From positions 888 through 64,887 of IMG/VR virus record IMGVR_UViG_3300049170_000080: a stretch of 64,000 nt of DNA; one strand, 5' to 3'. Numbering within the stretch: the first letter of the stretch is position 1; every line of letters starts with the position of its first letter. Position numbers and translations under genes: made by a program. The notes under the pieces are model-generated. The model saw only the letters and a list, made by a program, of their open reading frames with translations. It had not been told where the DNA came from and did not search any database. Below, piece by piece: positions 863 to 59,494 of the stretch. Source of the stretch: a virus (lineage: Duplodnaviria > Caudoviricetes).

Positions 863-1159
863 ATGAACGCGACCGTCACCCTGGTCGGCGGGCTCATGGC
901 GCTCGTCGGCGTTCTGGCGACGGCGGCGGTCGCGTACCTGGGAAAGCGCGGCGAGAACGCGCTGACGGGATACACCAGCCTGACGGACCAGCTCCAGGAA
1001 GAGCGGACCGAGCTGAAGCAGGAACTCGTCCAGAAGAGCGTCCAGCTGGCAGAAAAGGACGCCGCGCTGGCCGCGAAGTCAGAGCAGCGCGCCGCCGATC
1101 AGGCGGAGATCACGCGGCTCCGCGCGCTGGTGTGGCAACTCGGAGGGGACCCGACGTGA
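863..1159 (+). CDS. Membrane-anchored coiled-coil protein of lysis cassette
   Basis: N-terminal TM helix then heptad-rich segment; GTG start; stop overlaps next start. Confidence 0.65.
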   Translation: MNATVTLVGGLMALVGVLATAAVAYLGKRGENALTGYTSLTDQLQEERTELKQELVQKSVQLAEKDAALAAKSEQRAADQAEITRLRALVWQLGGDPT

Positions 1160-1851
1160 GGCGCACCGAGCATCTCCTTGCCCACCACTGGCGTGGCATC
1201 GCCACGCTGTGCGCGATTGTCGCCCTCTTCGGGATTGCTGCGCTCCTGTGGGCGCGCGTCGACAGCACGGACCGGGAGTCGGCGCGCAAGGCGCAGCAGC
1301 TTGCCGCAGAGGCAGACCTGCGCGGCCAGGCCGTCGCCACGCTGGCCACCGACGTCCGCCGCCTCCGTACGCAGATCAAGTCCGAGGGGAAGACGCCGGT
1401 AGCGCCGGACCCCACGAAGGCCGTGGACGACCTCCCCGAACGGGCCGCCGTACCGGTGCCCCTGCCGGGGGAGAAGGGCGACAAGGGCGACAAGGGGGAC
1501 CCGGGTAAGCCCGCGCCCACCATCACCCCGTCGCCGGGCGCCTCCGGCCAGCCGGGCCAACCCGGCCAGCCGGGCCAGGAGGGACTGCCGGGCAAAGATG
1601 GCGCGGACGGCCAGGACGGCCAGGACGGAGCGGACGGCCAGGACGGGCAACCGCCCGCCGGGTGGATGTACACCGACGCCCAGGGCACCAAGTACGACTG
1701 TCGGCCCGTCGACAACTTCGATCCCGACGCCCCCCGATACACCTGCACCGCGGTGTCGTCCGAGGAACCGGAACCGTCCACGCCTCCGCAGAACCCCAAC
1801 TCCAACGGCATGAACCTGGCCGTCCTCGCCCCCGACCGCCGCCGCTACTGA
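1156..1851 (+). CDS. Membrane-anchored collagen-like protein
   Basis: GTG at 1156 overlapping upstream TGA; TM segment, coiled coil, G-X-Y repeats (GDKGDKGD, GQPGQPGQ, GQDGADGQ). Confidence 0.75.
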   Translation: MRRTEHLLAHHWRGIATLCAIVALFGIAALLWARVDSTDRESARKAQQLAAEADLRGQAVATLATDVRRLRTQIKSEGKTPVAPDPTKAVDDLPERAAVPVPLPGEKGDKGDKGDPGKPAPTITPSPGASGQPGQPGQPGQEGLPGKDGADGQDGQDGADGQDGQPPAGWMYTDAQGTKYDCRPVDNFDPDAPRYTCTAVSSEEPEPSTPPQNPNSNGMNLAVLAPDRRRY

Positions 1852-1864
1852 AGGGCAGACGCTG

Positions 1865-3136
1865 ATGACCACGGTGAACGGCAAGCTGATCGGGGCGGCC
1901 AACCCGGAGCGGGTGGAGATGGTCGCCAACCTCGTTGACGTCACCGGCAAACCGGCGGTCGGCTACGTGCCCACCCAGGACGGTGAGATCGTCCGCCCGG
2001 TCCCCATCCAGGCCAACAGCAGCGGCGTGTGGACGGTCACCCTGACCGCGAACACCCTGATCGAATCGACGTCGGGGGACACCCTGTGGGCCGTACAGGA
2101 AGGCCGCGCCCTCGACGGCACCCCCGTCCTCACCCACATCCTCGTCCCCGAAGACGAAGGCCCGTGGTGGGTGGGCGACCTGCGCATCGACCTATCCGAC
2201 ACCACCACCGGTGACGGCAGCATCGTCTACGTGCCCGGGCCCGCCGGACCAGCAGGCCCTGCAGGTGCGACCGGGCCGGAGGGACCCGCCGGAGCGGCAG
2301 GCGCGGCCGGCGCCACGGGCGCGTCAGCGTACGAGGTGGCCATCTTGGAAGGCTTCACCGGCACCGAAGCCGACTGGCTGGCCTCCCTCACCGGCCCTCA
2401 AGGCGCGGCCGGGCCCGCCCGCCCAGGCCTGCTCAGCGTCAACGCCCAGCCCGACAACAGCCTCGGCATCGACGGAGACTGGGCCATCTCCCCCGGGGAA
2501 CGCCGCATCTACGGCCCGAAGACCGCAGGCGCCTGGACGGTGTGGTCCCGGATCGACCCACCCACCGAACCCGGCTGGCAGCGCAACGGCTTCGCCACCC
2601 TCGACGGCAGCGACCTGTATCTCACCCACGCCGCGGACGGCTTCGGTGCGGGCACCTGCTGGCGCACCACGCTCGCCCCCACCGAGGGCCTCGACGTGTC
2701 CTTCACCGCCGAGATGTCCGGCGGCACCGGCGCCGACGGCATCACCTTCGCCCTCGCCGACCCCGCCACCGCAGCCACCTTCCAAGGCGGCGGCGGAGGC
2801 GACCTGGGCCTGGTCGGCTGCGCCGCGGCCGCGCTCGCCCTCGACACCGGCGCCGGATCCCGGGCCCGCCTCGTCACCACCACCGAGACCGCGATGACCA
2901 CCATCGCCACCTACGGCGGCGCCCTGGACCTACGCGCCGCACCCGTCCAGGTCCGCGTCCTCTACCAGGCAGGCAAACTGTCCGCCTGGCTGGACGGCAC
3001 CCTGCTGTTCGACGAGGTGACCGTGGCGGCGGCCGCGAACGCCCGGATCGGCTGGACGGGCTCCAACGGCGGCGCCAACGACAACCACATCATCCGCGAC
3101 GCCGCCTTCGTCCCCAAGGGCGGCATCCAACTCTGA
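1865..3136 (+). CDS. Collagen-repeat protein with C-terminal L-type (ConA-like) lectin domain; possible fibre/adhesin
   Basis: GPAGPAG repeats; GADGITFAL, GGDLG, ALDT, IGWTGSNGG..NHII pattern typical of legume-lectin fold. Confidence 0.65.
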   Translation: MTTVNGKLIGAANPERVEMVANLVDVTGKPAVGYVPTQDGEIVRPVPIQANSSGVWTVTLTANTLIESTSGDTLWAVQEGRALDGTPVLTHILVPEDEGPWWVGDLRIDLSDTTTGDGSIVYVPGPAGPAGPAGATGPEGPAGAAGAAGATGASAYEVAILEGFTGTEADWLASLTGPQGAAGPARPGLLSVNAQPDNSLGIDGDWAISPGERRIYGPKTAGAWTVWSRIDPPTEPGWQRNGFATLDGSDLYLTHAADGFGAGTCWRTTLAPTEGLDVSFTAEMSGGTGADGITFALADPATAATFQGGGGGDLGLVGCAAAALALDTGAGSRARLVTTTETAMTTIATYGGALDLRAAPVQVRVLYQAGKLSAWLDGTLLFDEVTVAAAANARIGWTGSNGGANDNHIIRDAAFVPKGGIQL

Positions 3137-3145
3137 GCGGCCGGC

Positions 3146-3886
3146 TCAGGGCGCCACACGTCCGTTCGCATTGAAGGCCGCGTAGGTGAGCGGCATCAGC
3201 TTGGCCCACTCCGCCTCCATCTTTTCGCCCACCATCTCGATCTCCCGCTGCGGGAAAGACGGGACCTTGGCCAGCTCGTGCTGGGTGCGCAGGCCGAGGA
3301 AATGCATCAGCGAGCGGGCGTTGCAGGTGGCGTACATGGAGGAGTACAGGCCGACGGGGAGCACCGCGCGGGCGACCTCGCGGGCAACACCGTCCTCGAT
3401 CATCCGCTGGTAGGCCCTGTACGCCAGGCGGTACCCCGCGGTCATCCGTCGTGATGCGGTGTGGCGTAGGGCGTCACTTCCCGCCTCGAAGCGGTACTGA
3501 CCGGGCTTGCCGACCTGCACCAGCTTGCGGTCGGGGCCGGGGACGTAGAAGACCGGCTGGAGCTCCCGGTACCGGCCCGACTCCTCGTTGTAGGACCAGC
3601 CGACGCGGTGCCGCATGAACTCCCGGAAGACGAAGATCGGGGCGCTGATGAAGAAGGTCATCGAGTTGTGCTCGAACGGGCTGCCGTGCCGGTCCCGCAT
3701 CAGGTAGTTGATCAGGCCCTGGGAACGCTCGGGATCCTTGCCCAGCTCCTCCAGGGACTGCTCGCCGACGGTGGAGACACGGGCGGCCCACAGCACGTCC
3801 GTATCAGCCGCGCTGTGCTTGACCAGCTCGACTGTCACGTCGCTGCGGAAGATGGGGTCGATTGCATCGGCGGGGGCGTGGGTCAC
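3146..3886 (-). CDS. thyX: FAD-dependent thymidylate synthase
   Basis: RDRHGSPFEH and RHRVGWSYNEESGRY (ThyX motif); GTG start at 3886 preferred over the longer ORF call. Confidence 0.95.
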   Translation of the reverse strand: MTHAPADAIDPIFRSDVTVELVKHSAADTDVLWAARVSTVGEQSLEELGKDPERSQGLINYLMRDRHGSPFEHNSMTFFISAPIFVFREFMRHRVGWSYNEESGRYRELQPVFYVPGPDRKLVQVGKPGQYRFEAGSDALRHTASRRMTAGYRLAYRAYQRMIEDGVAREVARAVLPVGLYSSMYATCNARSLMHFLGLRTQHELAKVPSFPQREIEMVGEKMEAEWAKLMPLTYAAFNANGRVAP

Positions 3887-7665: not shown

Positions 7666-8088
7666 ATGAGAGTGATCATCGACGGCAAGCTGGAACTGGA
7701 CCTACCCGCGCCTCCCCGAGAGGGAGAAATCATCTCCTGGGACGGCGACGCCCGCCGCGTTGAGACCGTCGTCTGGCTCATCCCGAACACCAACATGTAC
7801 GGACAGGCCCCTAGCGCCGAAGACGTCTCCATCCATGTCCAACGGGAGAAGGACTGGCGCGAAGGCCTCACGGAAGCAGAGCTCCATGCCCGCTTCGGAC
7901 ACCCGGACTTCGAGTACCGAACCACTGAGGGCGCTCGCAAGCAGTTCGACGCCAGCATCCCGCCCGCCGACGACAACGGCGACCCAGACCCCACGTGGGA
8001 AGTGAACGTGGACGCAGGCCGCAACGGTTGGGACCGCTTCGACTACACCGAAGAGGCGTACTGGCGCCGCCGGAAGCAGAAGCGGTGA
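7666..8088 (+). CDS. Hypothetical protein
   Basis: ATG 7666 after agggag; stop overlaps recombinase start. Confidence 0.65.
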   Translation: MRVIIDGKLELDLPAPPREGEIISWDGDARRVETVVWLIPNTNMYGQAPSAEDVSIHVQREKDWREGLTEAELHARFGHPDFEYRTTEGARKQFDASIPPADDNGDPDPTWEVNVDAGRNGWDRFDYTEEAYWRRRKQKR

Positions 8089-9161
8089 CCGAGCTCGTCC
8101 CCGCCGCGCGCCCGGACCAGCTCGCCGCACCCACCCACAGTGCCGCTGACGACTGGCCCCCCGAAGCCCTCGACTTCGCCACCGAGTTGGCCGCGCACTA
8201 CCCGGCCGGCGACCCCTACCCGGGAGTCGTCGGAGCGTGGATCGCGCGGCAGAAGACCGTCAACACCCGCCGCACGTACGTCCGCCAGTACCGGGTGTGG
8301 GATACCTACGCCCGTAAGACCGGCACGCACCCGCTCGAGGCGCGCTTCCCGCTGGCCGAGGCGTTCTCCCGCCACCTTGAGACCGCGCCCACCCTGCAAC
8401 CGGTAAAGGGCGGCCACCGAGGGGAGAAGGCACCAACCGGCCCGCCCCGCTCCGACGCCGCCCGCGCCAACCTGCTCTCAGCGTGCTCCTCCTTCTACAC
8501 CTACGCCGTCCGCGCCCGCGCAGCCGAGATGGATCCCTTCGCCCTCGTCTCCCGACCCGAAATCGACCAGGACGGCTCCGACACCGAAGGCAGCACCGAA
8601 GAAGAGTCCGCACGCCTCCTGGCCGTCGCCTACGAAGACGGCCCCCGCTCCTACGCGCTGCTCCTGGCCATCTACACCATCGCCCTGCGCCTGGACTCCG
8701 CCCTACGCGCGCGCGTGGAAGACCTCGGCTACGACAAGGGCCACCGCATCCTCAACGTCCGACTCAAAGGCGGCCGCAAGAAGCCCAAGGTGGTCCCACC
8801 GGCCACCGGACACGCCATCGACGTCTACCTGGCCGGCCGCACCACCGGCCCGCTCTTCCAGACCCGCAACGGCAACCCGCTCGACTCAACGTACGTCTGG
8901 CGGCTCGTGAAGCGCCTGGCCAACAAGGCCGGCATCGCCAACGCCGCCACCTTCCACCCGCACGTCCTCAAGCACGACGCCGTCACCCACGCCCTGGACG
9001 CCCCCGACGCCAAGCTCCACCACGTCCAGGACTTCGCCGACCACAAGGACCCGCGCACCACCCGCCGCTACGACCGTCGCAAGGGCCGCCTCGACAACAG
9101 CCCCGGCTACCGCATCGCCGCCCGCATCGCCGAACGGCTGCCCGGCCGGGAGGATGACTAG
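8085..9161 (+). CDS. Tyrosine recombinase (XerC/Cre-like), atypical active-site motifs
   Basis: ALRLDS (R), KGG (K), HPHVLKH, ADHKDPRTTRRY (H, Y); N-terminal core-binding region. Confidence 0.85.
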   Translation: MTELVPAARPDQLAAPTHSAADDWPPEALDFATELAAHYPAGDPYPGVVGAWIARQKTVNTRRTYVRQYRVWDTYARKTGTHPLEARFPLAEAFSRHLETAPTLQPVKGGHRGEKAPTGPPRSDAARANLLSACSSFYTYAVRARAAEMDPFALVSRPEIDQDGSDTEGSTEEESARLLAVAYEDGPRSYALLLAIYTIALRLDSALRARVEDLGYDKGHRILNVRLKGGRKKPKVVPPATGHAIDVYLAGRTTGPLFQTRNGNPLDSTYVWRLVKRLANKAGIANAATFHPHVLKHDAVTHALDAPDAKLHHVQDFADHKDPRTTRRYDRRKGRLDNSPGYRIAARIAERLPGREDD

Positions 9162-16422: not shown

Positions 16423-16728
16423 GTGCCTGTTCGTACGTTCACTGCCGCCGCGGCATTTGCCGCGGCGGTTGCCGTATCCGCTGCCGTCGGGGTGGTGGTG
16501 CGGCGTCGATGCCGTCGTCTGGAGCGGGCGGCGGCGGTTCAGCGGCTGATGGCCGGCTGCCAGGTGCGGGACAACGCCGCGCTGCGCCGGGAGCTGGCCG
16601 GGTTCCGCTACCGCCTGGACCGGGAGTTCGCCCAGCAGGCGTCGCTGGCGGAGGCCGACCAGGTCCTCGATGAGGTTCTCGCCCACCACACACGTGTAGA
16701 CCCGCACCCGGAAGGGGGACCGGTATGA
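16423..16728 (+). CDS. Membrane-anchored hypothetical protein
   Basis: gagagg RBS, hydrophobic N-terminus, stop overlaps whiB-like start. Confidence 0.6.
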   Translation: MPVRTFTAAAAFAAAVAVSAAVGVVVRRRCRRLERAAAVQRLMAGCQVRDNAALRRELAGFRYRLDREFAQQASLAEADQVLDEVLAHHTRVDPHPEGGPV

Positions 16729-17741
16729 CCGGCACCAACAGCATTCTCGAGAGCCAGGCCGTGTCGGTTGAGGCCGCGCGGGCCGCGTGGCTGGAGCACC
16801 GGCACTTCCGCTACCGCGGCTGCGCCCCCGACGCCGACAACCCGCTGCAGATGGCGGGGAACCCGGAGCTGCCGGTGGGCGCGCATCATGCGCCGGACGT
16901 GGACGGCGGGGAGTCGCAGAAGGCGCGGCGGAAGCGGGAGGCCGCGGCGGTCGAGGTGTGCCTATCGTGTCCGGTGATGGTGCTGTGCGACCGGTACGCG
17001 AACAGCCTCACCGAGGAGGGCCGGCTGGCGGAGCCGGACGGGGTGTGGGGCGGGCGTACCGGGCTGGAGCGGCACAAAGCCTTGATTCGGGCGCGGCATG
17101 CGGTGCCGCCGGCGCCGGACCGCCGGTTCGAAACGGCGAAGAAGCGTGCGGTCCTCCGGGCGTTGGCCGTGTGCTGGGATCCGTACGAGGTGGCGGAGGT
17201 GGCGTCACGGCTGCTGCTGTCGTGGGGCGAGGGCCACGGGATGGATGTGGGGAGGGCGAACTGGCAGCGGTCCAATCTGACAACGCTGTTGGGTCTGCCC
17301 CGTGCCGCTACCCGTGCGCAGTTCCTGGCGGCCGCCGGGGAGCGGGGGCTGCTGGAGGGTGTGCAGGTGGTGGCGGATGACGGGTCGGTGCCTGCGGTGC
17401 CGCCGCCGACGCGGATACCGGTCATGGCGGGCGCTGAGGACGACGACCTCTGTCCGCCGAAGGAGCCGCCGCTGCCCGAACCGCTCGGGCCGCCCGAGCC
17501 GTTCCCCGCGCCCGACACCGTGCCGGATCCCGTCGCGGACCCGGAGGAGCCGGAGCAGGCTTCGGAGAGTGGGCGGTTGCGTGGCCCGCTGCGGCTGCTG
17601 TCGCCGCGCCGGAACCGGTTCACCGACGTCCAGGGGCAGATCGCCCTGTGGGAAGCCGAAGACGCCGCGGTCTGCGACCTGGCCGACCTGGCCGAGGTGC
17701 ACACCCTGTTCCCCGCCGAGCAGCTCCTGGCGGCAGCGTGA
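16725..17741 (+). CDS. whiB: WhiB-family Fe-S transcription factor with long C-terminal extension
   Basis: C..CLSCPVMVLC and GVWGG turn. Confidence 0.75.
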   Translation: MTGTNSILESQAVSVEAARAAWLEHRHFRYRGCAPDADNPLQMAGNPELPVGAHHAPDVDGGESQKARRKREAAAVEVCLSCPVMVLCDRYANSLTEEGRLAEPDGVWGGRTGLERHKALIRARHAVPPAPDRRFETAKKRAVLRALAVCWDPYEVAEVASRLLLSWGEGHGMDVGRANWQRSNLTTLLGLPRAATRAQFLAAAGERGLLEGVQVVADDGSVPAVPPPTRIPVMAGAEDDDLCPPKEPPLPEPLGPPEPFPAPDTVPDPVADPEEPEQASESGRLRGPLRLLSPRRNRFTDVQGQIALWEAEDAAVCDLADLAEVHTLFPAEQLLAAA

Positions 17742-45273: not shown

Positions 45274-45551
45274 GTATCCGCTCCGGGCACGCGCAGCCAC
45301 TGCGGCGGCTCGACAAGGCACGGCACCGTGGCCTGGCTGGTGACCGGTCCGGAAGCGTCCGGGTCGCTGAGGATGTTCCCGGTGCGCTCACACCGGACGT
45401 ACCCCGTGTACTGGATGACCTGCTGTCCGTCGTGTTCGGTGATGCGCAGGCCGGAGTCGTGGAGCGGAACGGTGAGGGGGTCGATGCCGTTGGCGGTGAG
45501 CCATTCACACAGGGCGAGGCGCTCTTCCTCCGTGGGGCGGGCGACGGACAT
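45270..45551 (-). CDS. Hypothetical protein
   Basis: Overlapping stop/start at both ends. Confidence 0.6.
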   Translation of the reverse strand: MSVARPTEEERLALCEWLTANGIDPLTVPLHDSGLRITEHDGQQVIQYTGYVRCERTGNILSDPDASGPVTSQATVPCLVEPPQWLRVPGADT

Positions 45552-45976
45552 CAGGCGCTGGCCTCCTCGGGAGCGGCCGCGGTGAGTCGGCTCTTGCTGC
45601 GGTGTAGGGGTGTGGTGGCGATGTCGCCGGCGGCTTCCTGCTCGGACAGCAGGTAGTAGGTCTTCCCGCCGTCGGTGGAGAACGCCTCCGAGTGGCGCTT
45701 CGACTGCCAGAGCGGTGTCTGCGTCAGCCCTTCGGCGTGACGGTCGATCCATTCGTTGGGGTCGTCGGTGAGGTCGGAAAGCGGCTGGTATCGCAGCAGC
45801 TTGTCCAGGTGCATGGCGGCGTGGAAGGCGCTGCTGCCGGAGTGGCCCATGTCAGCGAAGGCTTGGACGACGCGGCACAGGCCGCGGATGGTGTCGGGGT
45901 CTTCGCCGATGAGGCGGAGTTCGCGTCGGGCGTGGGCGACGAGGCCGGACTCTGCTTTGCGGGGTGCTGGGGGCAT
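45551..45976 (-). CDS. Conserved phage hypothetical protein
   Basis: LVAHARREL..FADMGHSGSSA..PLSDLTDDPNEW..WQS.R..AFSTDGGKTY. Confidence 0.7.
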   Translation of the reverse strand: MPPAPRKAESGLVAHARRELRLIGEDPDTIRGLCRVVQAFADMGHSGSSAFHAAMHLDKLLRYQPLSDLTDDPNEWIDRHAEGLTQTPLWQSKRHSEAFSTDGGKTYYLLSEQEAAGDIATTPLHRSKSRLTAAAPEEASA

Positions 45977-46076
45977 GCCGTCTACGGTCCCGCGGTTTGC
46001 GCGGAAGGTTCCCCCGGGTTGGGGAGGCCCGGCCGGTGCTGGGGGCACGCGGCCGGGCCGGTCTTCATGGTGCGGT

Positions 46077-46295
46077 CTATCCCCAGGTGCTGTCGCGGGG
46101 TGCGACTCGGTCGGTGCCGGAGTCCCCCGACCCGCTGTCGTCGCTGTCGTCGGTGGTCGGGGTGGTGGTGTCGGGTGCGCCCCAGGTGGAGTCGCCGGCC
46201 GGGGCGGCGATCGGCAGGTCGGCGAGGGCGTAGCCGGTGGCGGCGGTGGCGGTGAGGGCGATGGTGGCGGCGAGACGCTGGAGGCGTTTGTGCAT
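46077..46295 (-). CDS. Secreted peptide precursor with duplicated DSTWG motif
   Basis: aaagggga RBS; 72 aa; signal peptide MHKRLQRLAATIALTATAATGYALA; GDSTWG internally and RDSTWG at the C-terminus. Confidence 0.8.
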   Translation of the reverse strand: MHKRLQRLAATIALTATAATGYALADLPIAAPAGDSTWGAPDTTTPTTDDSDDSGSGDSGTDRVAPRDSTWG

Positions 46296-46582
46296 GGTGG
46301 TTGGTCCCCTTTCCGGGTGGTCAGGTCGTGTTTCGGGGACAGCATTGTGGGGCGTCGGCCCGCTTCTCGTTCCCTGTTCCTGCTGCGAATCCCTCAACTG
46401 GCTGTGTTTTCCTGGCAGTTAGACACAACCGGTCATGGGGAGGATGGGGAGTACGAGCGTCGGGGGACGCCCCGGGACCAATTTGCCTTAGGCTGATTTC
46501 GCTCTCAACCGTTCTCGACTGCGTATTGCCGCATTGCGCGCGTACGCAGGGCGGGGGCCTGTTTTGACGGGGGATCGGACCT

Positions 46583-47665
46583 TTGGCCATAGATATCGGA
46601 ATGGGTGACAGGGAGTTCCTGTCCGCTGCCGCGATCCGAACGTTTGGCCTGATCGCACGTGGTGAACGCGTCCCCGCCGAGTGTGCGGATTATGTTGCGG
46701 AACTCGTCGAGTGGGGTGTCGTCACCCTGGACACCGGCGATGAAAACAGACCGGTGGCGCTCAACCCGCACGAAGCCGCCCAGCGGCGTATGACGGACAG
46801 GCTGAAAGAGGCTGCCAAGCGGGTCGCGGAACTCAGTCAGCTCCCTGAGATCACGGGCCGTCTGGGCGAGCTGTACGAGCAGGGGCAGGCCCGTACGACG
46901 GGCGGATCCGAATACCTCGACGACCCTGCAGTTGTGAACGCCCGCCTCGACGACGTGATCGCCGGCGCACAGACGGAGCTGCTGACCGCGCAGCCGGGAG
47001 GGCCGAGGAACGAGGAACAGCTGAATCGTTCCCTCGAGCGGGACACCGCCGCGCTGGACCGTGGGGTGGTGAAGCTGACCTTGTACCGGGCGACGGTGCG
47101 GGACAACCCGGTGACGGCGGAGTACGCGCGGGCGATGTCGAACCGCCCGTCGGGCAAGTGTGCCGAGTTCGGCACCCTCGTGGGCCCGTTCGAGCGGGCG
47201 ATCATTGTGGACCGGCGGGTGGCGTTCATCTCCAACCACCTGGTCGAAGGGGCGCCGCCGCACGCGGCGTGGCAGGTCACCGACCCGGCGATGGTCGCCT
47301 ACATCGCGGCCGAGTTCGATGACCGGTGGCGGCGCGCGGACCCCTGGCACGGGGAGATGCGGGCACGGGGGCAGCACGGCGTGGACACCGTCTCCAGCGT
47401 GGACGGGATCCGTACGACGCGACGGCAGCGGGAGATCATGCGGGACATGGTCGCCGGCCGGGACCAGCGCGCCATCGCGGGCCGCCTCGGGGTATCCGTA
47501 CGTACCGTCTCCGACGAGATCAACGCACTGCGGGATCTGTTCGACGCGTCGTCGCGGGAGCAGTTGGTGTACAAGTGGGCGTTCTCCGCGGACCGGATCG
47601 TCGATGACAGCACCGACGCGCTCGGCGGCGGCCCGGGGGCCGGCCCGGTCAACGCGGTCGCCTGA
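46583..47665 (+). CDS. LuxR-type regulator with N-terminal wHTH-like and central TrmB/PLD-like sensor domain
   Basis: ERAIIVDRRVAFI central motif; TRRQREIMRDMVAG..IAGRLGVSVRTV LuxR HTH; start TTG 46583 or ATG 46601. Confidence 0.85.
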   Translation: MAIDIGMGDREFLSAAAIRTFGLIARGERVPAECADYVAELVEWGVVTLDTGDENRPVALNPHEAAQRRMTDRLKEAAKRVAELSQLPEITGRLGELYEQGQARTTGGSEYLDDPAVVNARLDDVIAGAQTELLTAQPGGPRNEEQLNRSLERDTAALDRGVVKLTLYRATVRDNPVTAEYARAMSNRPSGKCAEFGTLVGPFERAIIVDRRVAFISNHLVEGAPPHAAWQVTDPAMVAYIAAEFDDRWRRADPWHGEMRARGQHGVDTVSSVDGIRTTRRQREIMRDMVAGRDQRAIAGRLGVSVRTVSDEINALRDLFDASSREQLVYKWAFSADRIVDDSTDALGGGPGAGPVNAVA

Positions 47666-47668
47666 CCC

Positions 47669-48163
47669 TCAGGAACGGTCCTTGCGGGTCGCGTTGGACG
47701 GCTGCACGCCCTTCAGCACCGCCAGCTCCCGCTCCACCTCGGTCAGCCTGGCCAGGTATGCGGCGGCCTGCTCCTTCCAGTCCGGAGGGTCGCCGATACG
47801 GACACGGCCGGTCATGAACCGGTCCCAACCCTCCAGCGCGTACTCCAGGTCCCGGACACGGGCGCGCAGGCCGCCCGGGTCGCGGTCCTGACGCAGTTCG
47901 GCGACCTCGGCCTCGAGGCGGCGCATGTCCGCCAACGTGCGGACCTTCTGACGCTCCCGGCCCTTCTCATACCCGCGGCAGAACGCCTCTCGGCGCTCCT
48001 CCCGCGGGCACTCCTCGATCCACGGCAGCAGCGCGGCCGCCGCGTCACGGTGCTCCTGCGCCCGCTCGGCGTCTTCCTCCTCGATCTCGTCCAGGCCGCG
48101 GAAGTCGTACTCGCGTGCGAGCTGGTCGGCCAGGCGCTCAAGGCGGCTGGGCTGCTCGGTCAT
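47669..48163 (-). CDS. Coiled-coil hypothetical protein
   Basis: gaggga RBS. Confidence 0.6.
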   Translation of the reverse strand: MTEQPSRLERLADQLAREYDFRGLDEIEEEDAERAQEHRDAAAALLPWIEECPREERREAFCRGYEKGRERQKVRTLADMRRLEAEVAELRQDRDPGGLRARVRDLEYALEGWDRFMTGRVRIGDPPDWKEQAAAYLARLTEVERELAVLKGVQPSNATRKDRS

Positions 48164-58288: not shown

Positions 58289-59494
58289 TTATGCCGCCAA
58301 GGCGGTGATCGCCTCGACAGTCTCCTCAGCTGTGCGGTTCCCGGCATAGCGGGGCGCCGCGAGCATTCCCGCAAGCCGCTCGGCCCGCTTCACGATCCAC
58401 GAAATCTGCTCTTCCAAGGGCAACGACAGCACCGGCTGGATGGCTTCAGCTGCCCCTTCCACGTCGTCGAGCTGGACCCGCGCCGTGGCCAGGTAGATGT
58501 ACGCCAGCCGCTCATCGTCCAGCGACCGCTCCTCCTCCGGCCCGGCCTGCCACAACTCGATCGCCGTGACCGCCTCCCGCGCTGCGCGCTCCGCGTCGTG
58601 CCCGCCCTCGAGCCAGATCAGCGAGGATCCGGCGTAGTAGGACTGCTTCGCCCTCGAGAACCCGAACAGCCCGCCAAGCGAGTCCGGGCGCCGGATCCGC
58701 TCCCGCGCCTGCTCGGCACCATCCAAAGCGGCATTCGCCGCCCTCGAATCGCCCAGGTTCGCCAGGCACTGGGCCTCACCGCACCGCAGCCGGGCCTCCC
58801 CGGTACCGTGCCCGTGGCCCACCCACTGATAGCCGTCCCGCACGTACTCCAGCGCACGCCCGTAGTCACCCTGGAACCTGGCGATCAGCGACTTCGTGCC
58901 AGCCACCCACGCGGCCAACTCGGCATCCCCCGCAAACTCCGCGCACCGTCCCGCCGCCGTAGCGTGCTCCAGCGCCTCGTCCGAGTCGCCCATGTCGAGC
59001 AGCGCGTACGACAACACCCCGGACAACCGCCCGGCAGCGACGTACAGATCGGAACGGTCCTGCGGCCGGTGATGCCCCGAACGCAGCCGCTCGAACGCCT
59101 CCCCGCGCAGCAGGTGCGCGCGGTCCATCATCGGCGCCGGGGGAGAGGCCAGATAGTCCACCGCGGTAGCCGACACGCCCTCCTGGAGCTCGGAGATGTC
59201 CAGGTCCGCAAGCGCTGTCAGATCCCGGGACATCGCGAGCGCCGCAGCACGCGTACGGTGCGCGGCCGCAGCCTCCCGGCGGGCCGCATCCTCCCGGTGC
59301 CACTGCTCCACCAGCGCACCGTTCGCGCCGGTCGCCTCGTCCGCCGCCTCCGCCACGCACAGCGGCGTCGGCCGTCTGCCCGACTCGAAGTTGTGCAGCG
59401 ACGTGCGGTCGTAGCGGACACGCTGCGCCAAGTCCGCAAGGGACATGTGGGCAGCCATCCGCCATTCACGGAGCAGTTCCGGGAAGGTCGTCAT
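58289..59494 (-). CDS. XRE-family HTH regulator with C-terminal TPR-like helical domain
   Basis: FPELLREWR..MSLADLAQRVRYDRTSLHNFESGRR; long Ala/Leu-rich helical repeats. Confidence 0.85.
   Translation of the reverse strand: MTTFPELLREWRMAAHMSLADLAQRVRYDRTSLHNFESGRRPTPLCVAEAADEATGANGALVEQWHREDAARREAAAAHRTRAAALAMSRDLTALADLDISELQEGVSATAVDYLASPPAPMMDRAHLLRGEAFERLRSGHHRPQDRSDLYVAAGRLSGVLSYALLDMGDSDEALEHATAAGRCAEFAGDAELAAWVAGTKSLIARFQGDYGRALEYVRDGYQWVGHGHGTGEARLRCGEAQCLANLGDSRAANAALDGAEQARERIRRPDSLGGLFGFSRAKQSYYAGSSLIWLEGGHDAERAAREAVTAIELWQAGPEEERSLDDERLAYIYLATARVQLDDVEGAAEAIQPVLSLPLEEQISWIVKRAERLAGMLAAPRYAGNRTAEETVEAITALAA

Follow-up and report, generated by a model that had tools for sequence, protein, structure and literature searches.

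Introduction

Among the closest described counterparts of the locus analysed here is the arbitrium system (AimR-AimP-AimX) of SPbeta-like Bacillus phages. Our locus is a divergent pair of genes at positions 46,077 to 47,665 of a 64,000-nucleotide stretch of viral DNA (Duplodnaviria; Caudoviricetes; positions 888 to 64,887 of IMG/VR virus record IMGVR_UViG_3300049170_000080), hereafter called the window; one gene encodes a putative secreted precursor that carries the pentapeptide DSTWG twice, and the other a predicted DNA-binding regulator. As in arbitrium, a pro-peptide with a Sec signal peptide is encoded on a mobile element, its proposed mature short peptide is C-terminal, its gene adjoins that of a cytoplasmic DNA-binding protein (the receptor in arbitrium, a candidate receptor here), and the peptide differs between related elements; in one relative, the temperate phage Chymera, the pair also lies beside a lysogeny module. 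Unlike the arbitrium receptor, however, which belongs to the tetratricopeptide repeat (TPR) proteins of the RRNPP type, the regulator combines a TrmB-like winged helix-turn-helix (wHTH), a PLD-like domain and a LuxR-type helix-turn-helix (HTH). Furthermore, the genes are divergent rather than co-directional, and no equivalent of aimX was found: behind the precursor gene come a hairpin and accessory genes that vary between loci. The motif, DxxW(G), has four or five residues and frequently occurs in two or three copies; the hosts are Actinomycetota, the module occurs on chromosomes too, and its function is a proposed one.

The Rap-Phr and other RRNPP(A) cassettes of Bacillota similarly place a small gene for an exported propeptide beside a receptor gene, with a mature pentapeptide at the C-terminus, and include orphan receptors as well as propeptides with several, sometimes non-identical, pheromone copies. 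In phage Rap-Phr, such tandemly duplicated and sometimes differing copies reside within Sec-exported propeptides (PMC11343458). The present pair differs in phylum and in the fold of the regulator, which is unrelated and lacks TPRs, and its peptide binding and import by an oligopeptide permease (Opp) are proposed by us rather than established. The predicted fold is instead shared with TrmB and TrmBL2 of Thermococcales, in which an N-terminal wHTH is likewise followed by a coiled-coil dimerisation helix and then by a PLD-like effector domain; the window protein, however, is bacterial, carries a further LuxR/GerE HTH in its C-terminal part, has a secreted-peptide gene as its partner and a peptide as its proposed ligand. 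Finally, phage LuxR-type quorum-sensing receptors (PMC6456758) resemble the regulator in being phage-borne, in their LuxR-type HTH and in responding to an extracellular signal, as the regulator would, but they rely on an acyl-homoserine-lactone domain and host signals, whereas here a TrmB/PLD-like sensor would respond to a signal that the element encodes.

Results

The precursor and regulator genes are, judged by comparison of related loci, a conserved two-gene unit rather than a regulator with a chance open reading frame (ORF) next to it. Because the peptide alone gives no detectable sequence homologue (a word-based homology search with the window peptide returned only the self-match), the survey was run through loci encoding relatives of the regulator: 47 from species genomes, 14 from IMG/VR, 12 from annotated plasmid or phage records, 8 from a 301-genome Streptomyces sample and 39 from metagenomes. 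In the regulator tree, two clades are apparent. The clade of 44 (Shimodaira-Hasegawa-like approximate likelihood ratio test support 99) holds every multi-copy precursor; the other, with 33 members and comprising Nocardioides regulators and Streptomyces core paralogues, holds none, and no ORF ending in DxxW was detected, by the criteria used, within 2 kb of the Nocardioides-clade regulators (25 loci), a blank that we do not read as proof that none exists. Within the clade of 44, 34 regulators are accompanied by an upstream ORF in divergent orientation that encodes a signal peptide and two to three DxxW(G) copies, and 2 more by one with a single C-terminal copy, so that 36 of the 44 have a divergent DxxW(G) precursor. 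With the metagenome scan included, the number of unique regulator-precursor pairs reaches 49. An earlier note on the window (hereafter, the original prediction) had recognised the layout of a pheromone precursor beside a non-RRNPP regulator and had suggested a survey of homologous regulators for adjacent DxxW(G) peptides; these counts, together with the fold described below, bear out that layout.

Every related precursor ORF terminates exactly at its last DxxWG or DxxW copy. Besides DSTWG, which was found in the window only, the variants are DTTWG, DTAWG, DTGWG, DSGWG, DTHWG, DTWWG, DTCWC, DSAWG, DSVWG, DSVW, DSTW, DSQWG and DPGWG. A strict detector for ORFs that end in DxxW, or in DxxW plus one residue, and contain at least two copies yielded a single match in the six frames of the window, namely the precursor ORF, and 34 matches in 588 kb of related loci, all of them in the divergent slot upstream of the regulator. 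Given this confinement to one slot, a chance origin of the precursor is excluded on comparative grounds. Across phage-plasmids, larger plasmids, Chymera and chromosome arms, the regulator is the sole constant neighbour of the peptide gene.

Several features identify the motif as the likely functional product of the precursor gene. Conservation across precursors is confined to the signal peptide and the motif, while the spacers are hypervariable in both length and sequence. The Asp and Trp codons of the motif copies are invariant, and the Ser codons differ between copies of one gene, being TCC and AGC in the window and AGY and TCC in the clade of DSVW-type pairs. Since the copies use Ser codon classes that are not interconvertible, selection acts on the translated motif rather than on the repeated DNA. 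In gp30 of Chymera, DPGWG occurs once immediately after an A-Q-A signal-peptidase site and again immediately before the stop codon, so that both ends of the unit are marked by independent features. We also note precursors of mixed type, with DTGWG and DTAWG (L087), DTTWG and two copies of DTGWG (L056), or DTAWG and two copies of DTGWG (L008), which may represent intermediates in a change of signal specificity.

The precursor gene itself has G+C contents of 0.64, 0.67 and 0.92 at the three codon positions and a ribosome-binding site (RBS), AAGGGGA, 9 nt 5' of the ATG. Its product begins with three basic residues, followed by an 18-residue hydrophobic stretch up to A-L-A, and the same build (basic n-region, hydrophobic h-region, AxA) recurs in all 32 of the 32 precursors listed; the spacer between the DSTWG copies is acidic and rich in Thr, Pro and Ser. 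The coordinates of the ORF and of both motif copies given in the original prediction were exact (Table 1). No family in Pfam, PHROGs or NCBIfam covers the precursor, and a profile built from 20 precursors matched 15 small proteins, all without a name; in RefSeq, most such small genes are labelled 'hypothetical protein'. An alternative TTG start at 46397, which would give 106 residues, was ruled out: G+C at third codon positions (GC3) falls to 0.82 and the extension is not conserved.

For the regulator, Pfam, PHROGs and NCBIfam recognise only the HTH and offer no curated family for the whole protein. The Pfam GerE/LuxR HTH (PF00196) is matched at residues 279-329 (3.5e-6; 27 bits against a cut-off of 23.5) and in 23 of 28 homologues, Pfam Regulator_TrmB is matched in 2 of the 28, and profile matches in the PDB to RhlR and NarL cover the HTH region only. 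Neither an acyl-homoserine-lactone domain (Autoind_bind) in the regulator nor a TPR in the regulator and its homologues was matched in Pfam. An AlphaFold2 model based on 28 homologues reached a predicted local distance difference test (pLDDT) score of 83.6, and Foldseek aligned it with TrmBL2 (1.5e-12), TrmB (6.5e-10), Nuc/PLD (4e-7) and the TrmB sugar-binding domain 2f5t (1e-5), at 13-19% sequence identity to the TrmB-family matches. The model thus agrees with the domain assignment of the original prediction, a TrmB/PLD-type domain with a LuxR HTH, and suggests a cytoplasmic, receptor-like protein with the effector-domain fold of TrmB.

One hint that the peptide and the regulator interact comes from their covariation. 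Thr at residue 3 of the peptide coincides with R149 and with S150 of the regulator in 48 of 48 pairs; no other regulator column exceeds 43 of 48. The match extends to the DSTW clade (L061, L062), whose branch is separate from that of the DTTWG clade. In the DTTWG clade, precursors with a residue other than Thr at this position belong to regulators that have lost S150: regulators with T150 go with His, those with V150 with Cys, and Trp is found with A150 or, in receptor L053, with G150. Val at residue 3 pairs with G150, and Ala and Gly pair with A150. Of the seven changes at regulator column 150, six fall on branches on which peptide residue 3 changes; per-column co-change tests for peptide residues 2 and 5 yielded nothing notable. 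We regard the covariation between peptide residue 3 and R149/S150 as suggestive. When residues 10-345 of the regulator were co-folded with the 30 C-terminal residues of the precursor, the score was 0.40 against 0.01 for the best of three controls, a result graded as weak support. The mark is reached by 58 of 80 solved complexes and by 2 of 110 mismatched pairs, and only 7 of the 80 solved complexes scored 0.60 or less, like both passing mismatches; the runs share at least 22% of contacts, with a partner pLDDT of at least 36.

The two genes are separated by 287 bp (46296-46582), in which the original prediction had noted an inverted repeat, CTGCGTA-N17-TACGCAG, at 46519-46549. The repeat is present, but is better read as two adjacent palindromes, TGCG-N6-CGCA, which form a candidate operator. 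These are the only two matches to that pattern in the 64-kb window; with as many as two mismatches permitted, the expectation for the tandem form is still only 0.13. In most DTxWG-type loci, the same tandem pair precedes the regulator start by 35-65 bp, and in the DSVW clade one TGGCG-N6-CGCCA stands at the corresponding place. Collectively, 22 of 32 related intergenic regions contain the strict palindrome site, against a background of 0.13 per kb. The form TGGCGTA-NN-TACGCCA presumably recalls the 7-2-7 sites of NarL-type HTH dimers, which we take as a lead only.

The remainder of the intergenic region contains blocks that are better conserved than the flanking proteins across 15 phage-plasmid loci. 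The blocks GGGGCGYC and GACGCCCC lie about 110 nt apart, and a small hairpin with a CCCC loop can be drawn on the peptide-sense strand. RNAalifold, applied to that strand, recovered little covariation and mainly invariant or one-sided pairs, and we therefore claim no RNA structure for the leader; Rfam gave no match in the window or the intergenic region, and a sigma-70 consensus scan of 45900-47800 revealed no promoter. The blocks could correspond to a leader RNA, a small RNA or protein-binding sites.

On the other side of the precursor gene, the stop codon is followed after 20 nt by a GC-rich hairpin, probably a terminator or attenuator lacking a U-tract (fold of 45970-46085 on the minus strand, -60.5 kcal/mol, z -3.3). 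Comparable hairpins occur 3' of the peptide gene in other loci (mean z -1.6; 17 of 35 below -1.5), which makes the peptide gene look like a short closed unit. Variable accessory genes lie behind the hairpin across loci. In the window, as well as in L002, L052, L058 and L059, where the peptides are of different types, the gene in this position encodes a protein of the Tad3 family; Tad3 is an inhibitor of type I Thoeris (PMC13728456). This gene is a possible read-through output of the peptide unit.

The window has a G+C content of about 69% and covers nearly the whole of a 64,887-bp virus record with a CheckV completeness of 72%, which also encodes a tyrosine integrase (8085-9161), ParA, an N6/N4 methylase and a DnaB helicase. 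The genes for tail fibres, thymidylate synthase and a WhiB-like protein (Table 1) speak for the viral nature of the record. The one public sequencing run that contains this DNA is a soil metagenome, from which the record may derive. Relatives of the regulator reside mostly on contigs and complete plasmids in the range of 85-94 kb, including pSAM1 of S. ambofaciens ATCC 23877, and several of these ~90-kb relatives are also classed as viral by IMG/VR; the window element is therefore treated here as a fragment of a ~90-kb Streptomyces phage-plasmid. It presumably resembles the plasmid-phage pZL12. Megablast of positions 40-54 kb against phage records produced only irrelevant 40-nt matches. The original prediction described the pair as the only such island within a long minus-strand operon; the regulator is indeed a plus-strand gene in the midst of minus-strand genes (~42.9-53.3 kb). 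The genes around the pair are early and accessory ones, and the integrase is 38 kb away. The leftward early region is headed by a gene for an XRE-type HTH and TPR protein (Table 1), which could be the main switch regulator of the element.

The module is carried by ~90-kb Streptomyces phage-plasmids such as pSAM1, by larger plasmids, by Chymera and by Streptomyces chromosome arms. The pSAM1 precursor contains DTAWG three times, and Chymera has S. venezuelae as a host. A close homologue of the regulator was found in 8 of 301 Streptomyces species genomes; 102 PLSDB plasmids and 1 sequenced phage gave matches, and a regulator profile matched 191 clusters (at 50% identity; E <= 1e-30); by this measure, the family is mobile and patchy in distribution. 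The chromosome-arm copies sit amid metabolic and regulatory genes as well as genes for nonribosomal peptide synthetases (NRPSs), and the idea of a phage-specific system, as originally put forward, is hence not supported. At L017:6028-10947 and its neighbours, for instance, the genes next to a DSVW-type pair on the chromosome encode an M20 peptidase, a dehydrogenase, a methyltransferase and an NRPS A-PCP-TE module; the pair could belong, as a signalling unit, to a biosynthetic cluster.

Beyond the complete pairs, the survey uncovered regulators in other arrangements. Two members of a sister clade (L069 and L038; 30-32% identity) each have a divergent precursor with one copy of the motif at its end (DLGWG and DTGWG), for which reason the link to the peptide may be older than the main clade. 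Tandem, distant paralogues of the regulator (E ~1e-30) occupy the chromosome core at G001:C1:4301673-4303337 (L068, L072) and at the matching places in G002 and G003, and no DxxW peptide gene was found within 2 kb of such paralogues. Orphan regulators of the peptide-linked clade, with no peptide gene, are those of L075/L004 and L005; of L077-L079 and L088-L089, in which a larger gene, annotated in L088 and L089 as helix-turn-helix domain-containing, occupies the upstream slot; and of L081 and L091, in which a transposase does. The orphans L075 and L005 retain R149-S150, and may thus listen to DxTWG peptides released by other elements.

Table 1. Positions of the precursor, the regulator and associated features in the window.
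Feature	Position	Strand	Details
Secreted-precursor gene	46077-46295 (stop codon included)	-	72 aa; GC3 0.92, RBS, ATG start; 49 positional counterparts
Predicted signal peptide	46221-46295	-	Residues 1-25; predicted signal-peptidase site A-L-A before Asp26; read from sequence
Internal DSTWG copy	46179-46193	-	Residues 35-39; Ser codon TCC
C-terminal DSTWG copy, proposed mature signal	46080-46094	-	Residues 68-72, directly 5' of stop; Ser codon AGC
Regulator gene	46583-47665	+	360 aa; TTG start with GGGGGA RBS, consistent with homologue N-termini
Regulator domains			TrmB-like wHTH ~10-60, coiled coil 61-103, PLD-like 104-262, disordered linker, LuxR/GerE HTH 279-329 (residues)
R149-S150 codons, candidate specificity residues	47027-47032	+	Within helix 144-159, PLD-like domain
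Two tandem 14-bp palindromes TGCG-N6-CGCA, candidate operator	46520-46533, 46535-46548		35-63 bp before regulator start
Conserved intergenic blocks	46296-46519		GGGGCGYC, TCCTGCTGCGA, CTGGCAG..TAGACGC, GGGGAGGATG..CGGGGGACGCCCC, TGCCnTA, TCAAC; MAFFT, 15 loci
GC-rich hairpin	46026-46059	-	10-bp arms GGCCCGGCCG / CGGCCGGGCC; 20 nt 3' of precursor stop
Tad3-family protein gene	45551-45976	-	First after peptide gene and hairpin; Pfam PF25185, 1.9e-30, 105.5 bits against a cut-off of 27
Two collagen-like tail-fibre genes, thymidylate synthase, WhiB-like domain protein	1132-3136, 3146-3886, 16725-17741		
XRE-type HTH and TPR protein gene	58289-59494	-	401 aa; NCBIfam NsdA-family TPR-like regulator, 3.7e-27

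Discussion

In the present study, we analysed a pair of genes that emerges from comparison of its relatives as a strong candidate for gene-encoded peptide signalling. From the anatomy and conservation of the pair, the selection on the motif, the fold of the regulator, the conserved operator and the covariation, we infer secretion, processing, uptake, binding, a sign of regulation and an output, and tentatively read the locus, with a confidence that stops a little short of even, as a peptide-receptor signalling cassette in which Rap-Phr/arbitrium-like logic is built on a TrmB/PLD-type sensor. In such a cassette, the 72-residue precursor would leave the cell through Sec, with signal-peptidase cleavage after residue 25, and extracellular proteases would trim the remainder to the pentapeptide DSTWG, two copies per precursor. 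DSTWG would then build up outside the cell and be imported by the oligopeptide permease of the host, to bind the PLD-like domain of the adjacent TrmB-like/LuxR regulator. Binding would alter the occupancy of the tandem TGCG-N6-CGCA operators by the regulator, and occupancy would in turn set the transcription of the regulator and peptide genes, possibly with read-through into accessory genes, here the Tad3-like anti-Thoeris gene.

Several observations weigh against a cassette of this kind. The covariation check suggested in the original prediction gave the 48 of 48 matches, but the independent contrasts behind them are few, 3 on supported branches and 5 on all branches (sign test p 0.25), and the binomial p of 0.0022 for co-change at column 150 fails correction over 319 columns. 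Residue 150 is also not the sole determinant of specificity, because Ala, Gly and Trp all go with A150. The co-folding of peptide and regulator, likewise suggested at the outset, gave a pass, but a weak one, and passes of the weak class are more often wrong than right unless the pairing was likely beforehand. There is no protease or permease gene in the module, and 8 of the 44 clade regulators have no peptide gene. Furthermore, the effector domains of TrmB proteins are known, from Pyrococcus and Thermococcus TrmB, as binders of sugars and not of peptides.

Some of these points lead directly to the main alternative, which we consider less likely than the cassette but far from remote: the regulator could sense another ligand, such as a sugar or a metabolite, and merely control a neighbouring secreted-peptide gene, while the DxxWG peptide would act elsewhere, on a membrane sensor, a host receptor, competitors or the cell surface (for example, in superinfection exclusion). 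The fold match is indeed to archaeal TrmB members with PLD-like sugar-sensing domains, operators in a shared promoter region are to be expected for any local regulator, and the co-folding support is weak. In addition, 10 regulators of the clade lack a multi-copy precursor, and the 8 among them without any peptide gene must function without a peptide encoded in cis. Nevertheless, this alternative leaves unexplained why R149/S150 should track the variable residue of the peptide in 48 of 48 pairs, a separate clade included, and no sensor kinase or other candidate receptor accompanies the peptide gene in the contexts compared.

A different matter is what a signalling cassette would be used for. 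In an arbitrium-like census, DSTWG would serve as a gauge of how densely carriers or recent infections occur, and the regulator would switch between plasmid-prophage maintenance and lytic growth, or would time anti-defence cargo such as the Tad3-like gene, or both; the module would then be an independently evolved, non-RRNPP counterpart of arbitrium in Actinomycetota, and DTTWG, DTAWG, DSVW and the other variants would serve as private channels between competing elements. We judge this reading, private channels included, to be improbable. In its favour, the element is viral and its relatives are plasmids of ~88-93 kb also classed as viral by IMG/VR, the Chymera pair adjoins an integrase and an immunity repressor, and the peptide variants differ between related elements, like arbitrium codes. 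However, the window pair is far from the integrase with no recognisable switch gene adjoining it, no distant regulon is visible because the 64 kb contain no further copies of the palindromes, the same module resides in chromosome arms among metabolic and NRPS genes, and there is no aimX-like element. The control of lysis, lysogeny or transfer envisaged in the original prediction thus retains a positional hint in Chymera only.

Still less probable, to the point of being very hard to defend, is a precursor of a ribosomally made, post-translationally modified peptide (RiPP), with DxxWG as the repeated core, for example Trp-modified as in ComX. Whereas the repeated core motif, the invariant Trp and the variable spacers between copies would fit a RiPP, no conserved gene for a modifying enzyme adjoins the pair in any context compared, and a Sec signal peptide in place of a RiPP leader implies export before any cytoplasmic modification. 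Finally, although high-GC DNA is rich in spurious ORFs, among them an overlapping 48-aa plus-strand ORF with a GC3 of 0.94, a chance ORF with a fortuitous repeat can be dismissed, as there are 49 counterparts of the same build, the amino-acid motif persists despite synonymous codon changes and changes of Ser codon class, and the detector finds no match elsewhere.

We found no description of the peptide-regulator system in the open-access papers and bioRxiv preprints searched. Peptide quorum sensing, with linear gene-encoded signals and cytoplasmic receptors, has been placed in Bacillota, with actinomycetes described as small-molecule signallers (PMC10075063), and actinomycetes are absent from a 2026 review of phage communication. 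If the signalling cassette proposed here is real, it would represent an independent invention of the peptide-signal logic with a TrmB/PLD-type sensor and would extend the 'communication' of phages and plasmids to the main antibiotic-producing genus. The variants of the module would, moreover, provide orthogonal and easily synthesised sets of peptides, regulators and operators for the engineering of Streptomyces.

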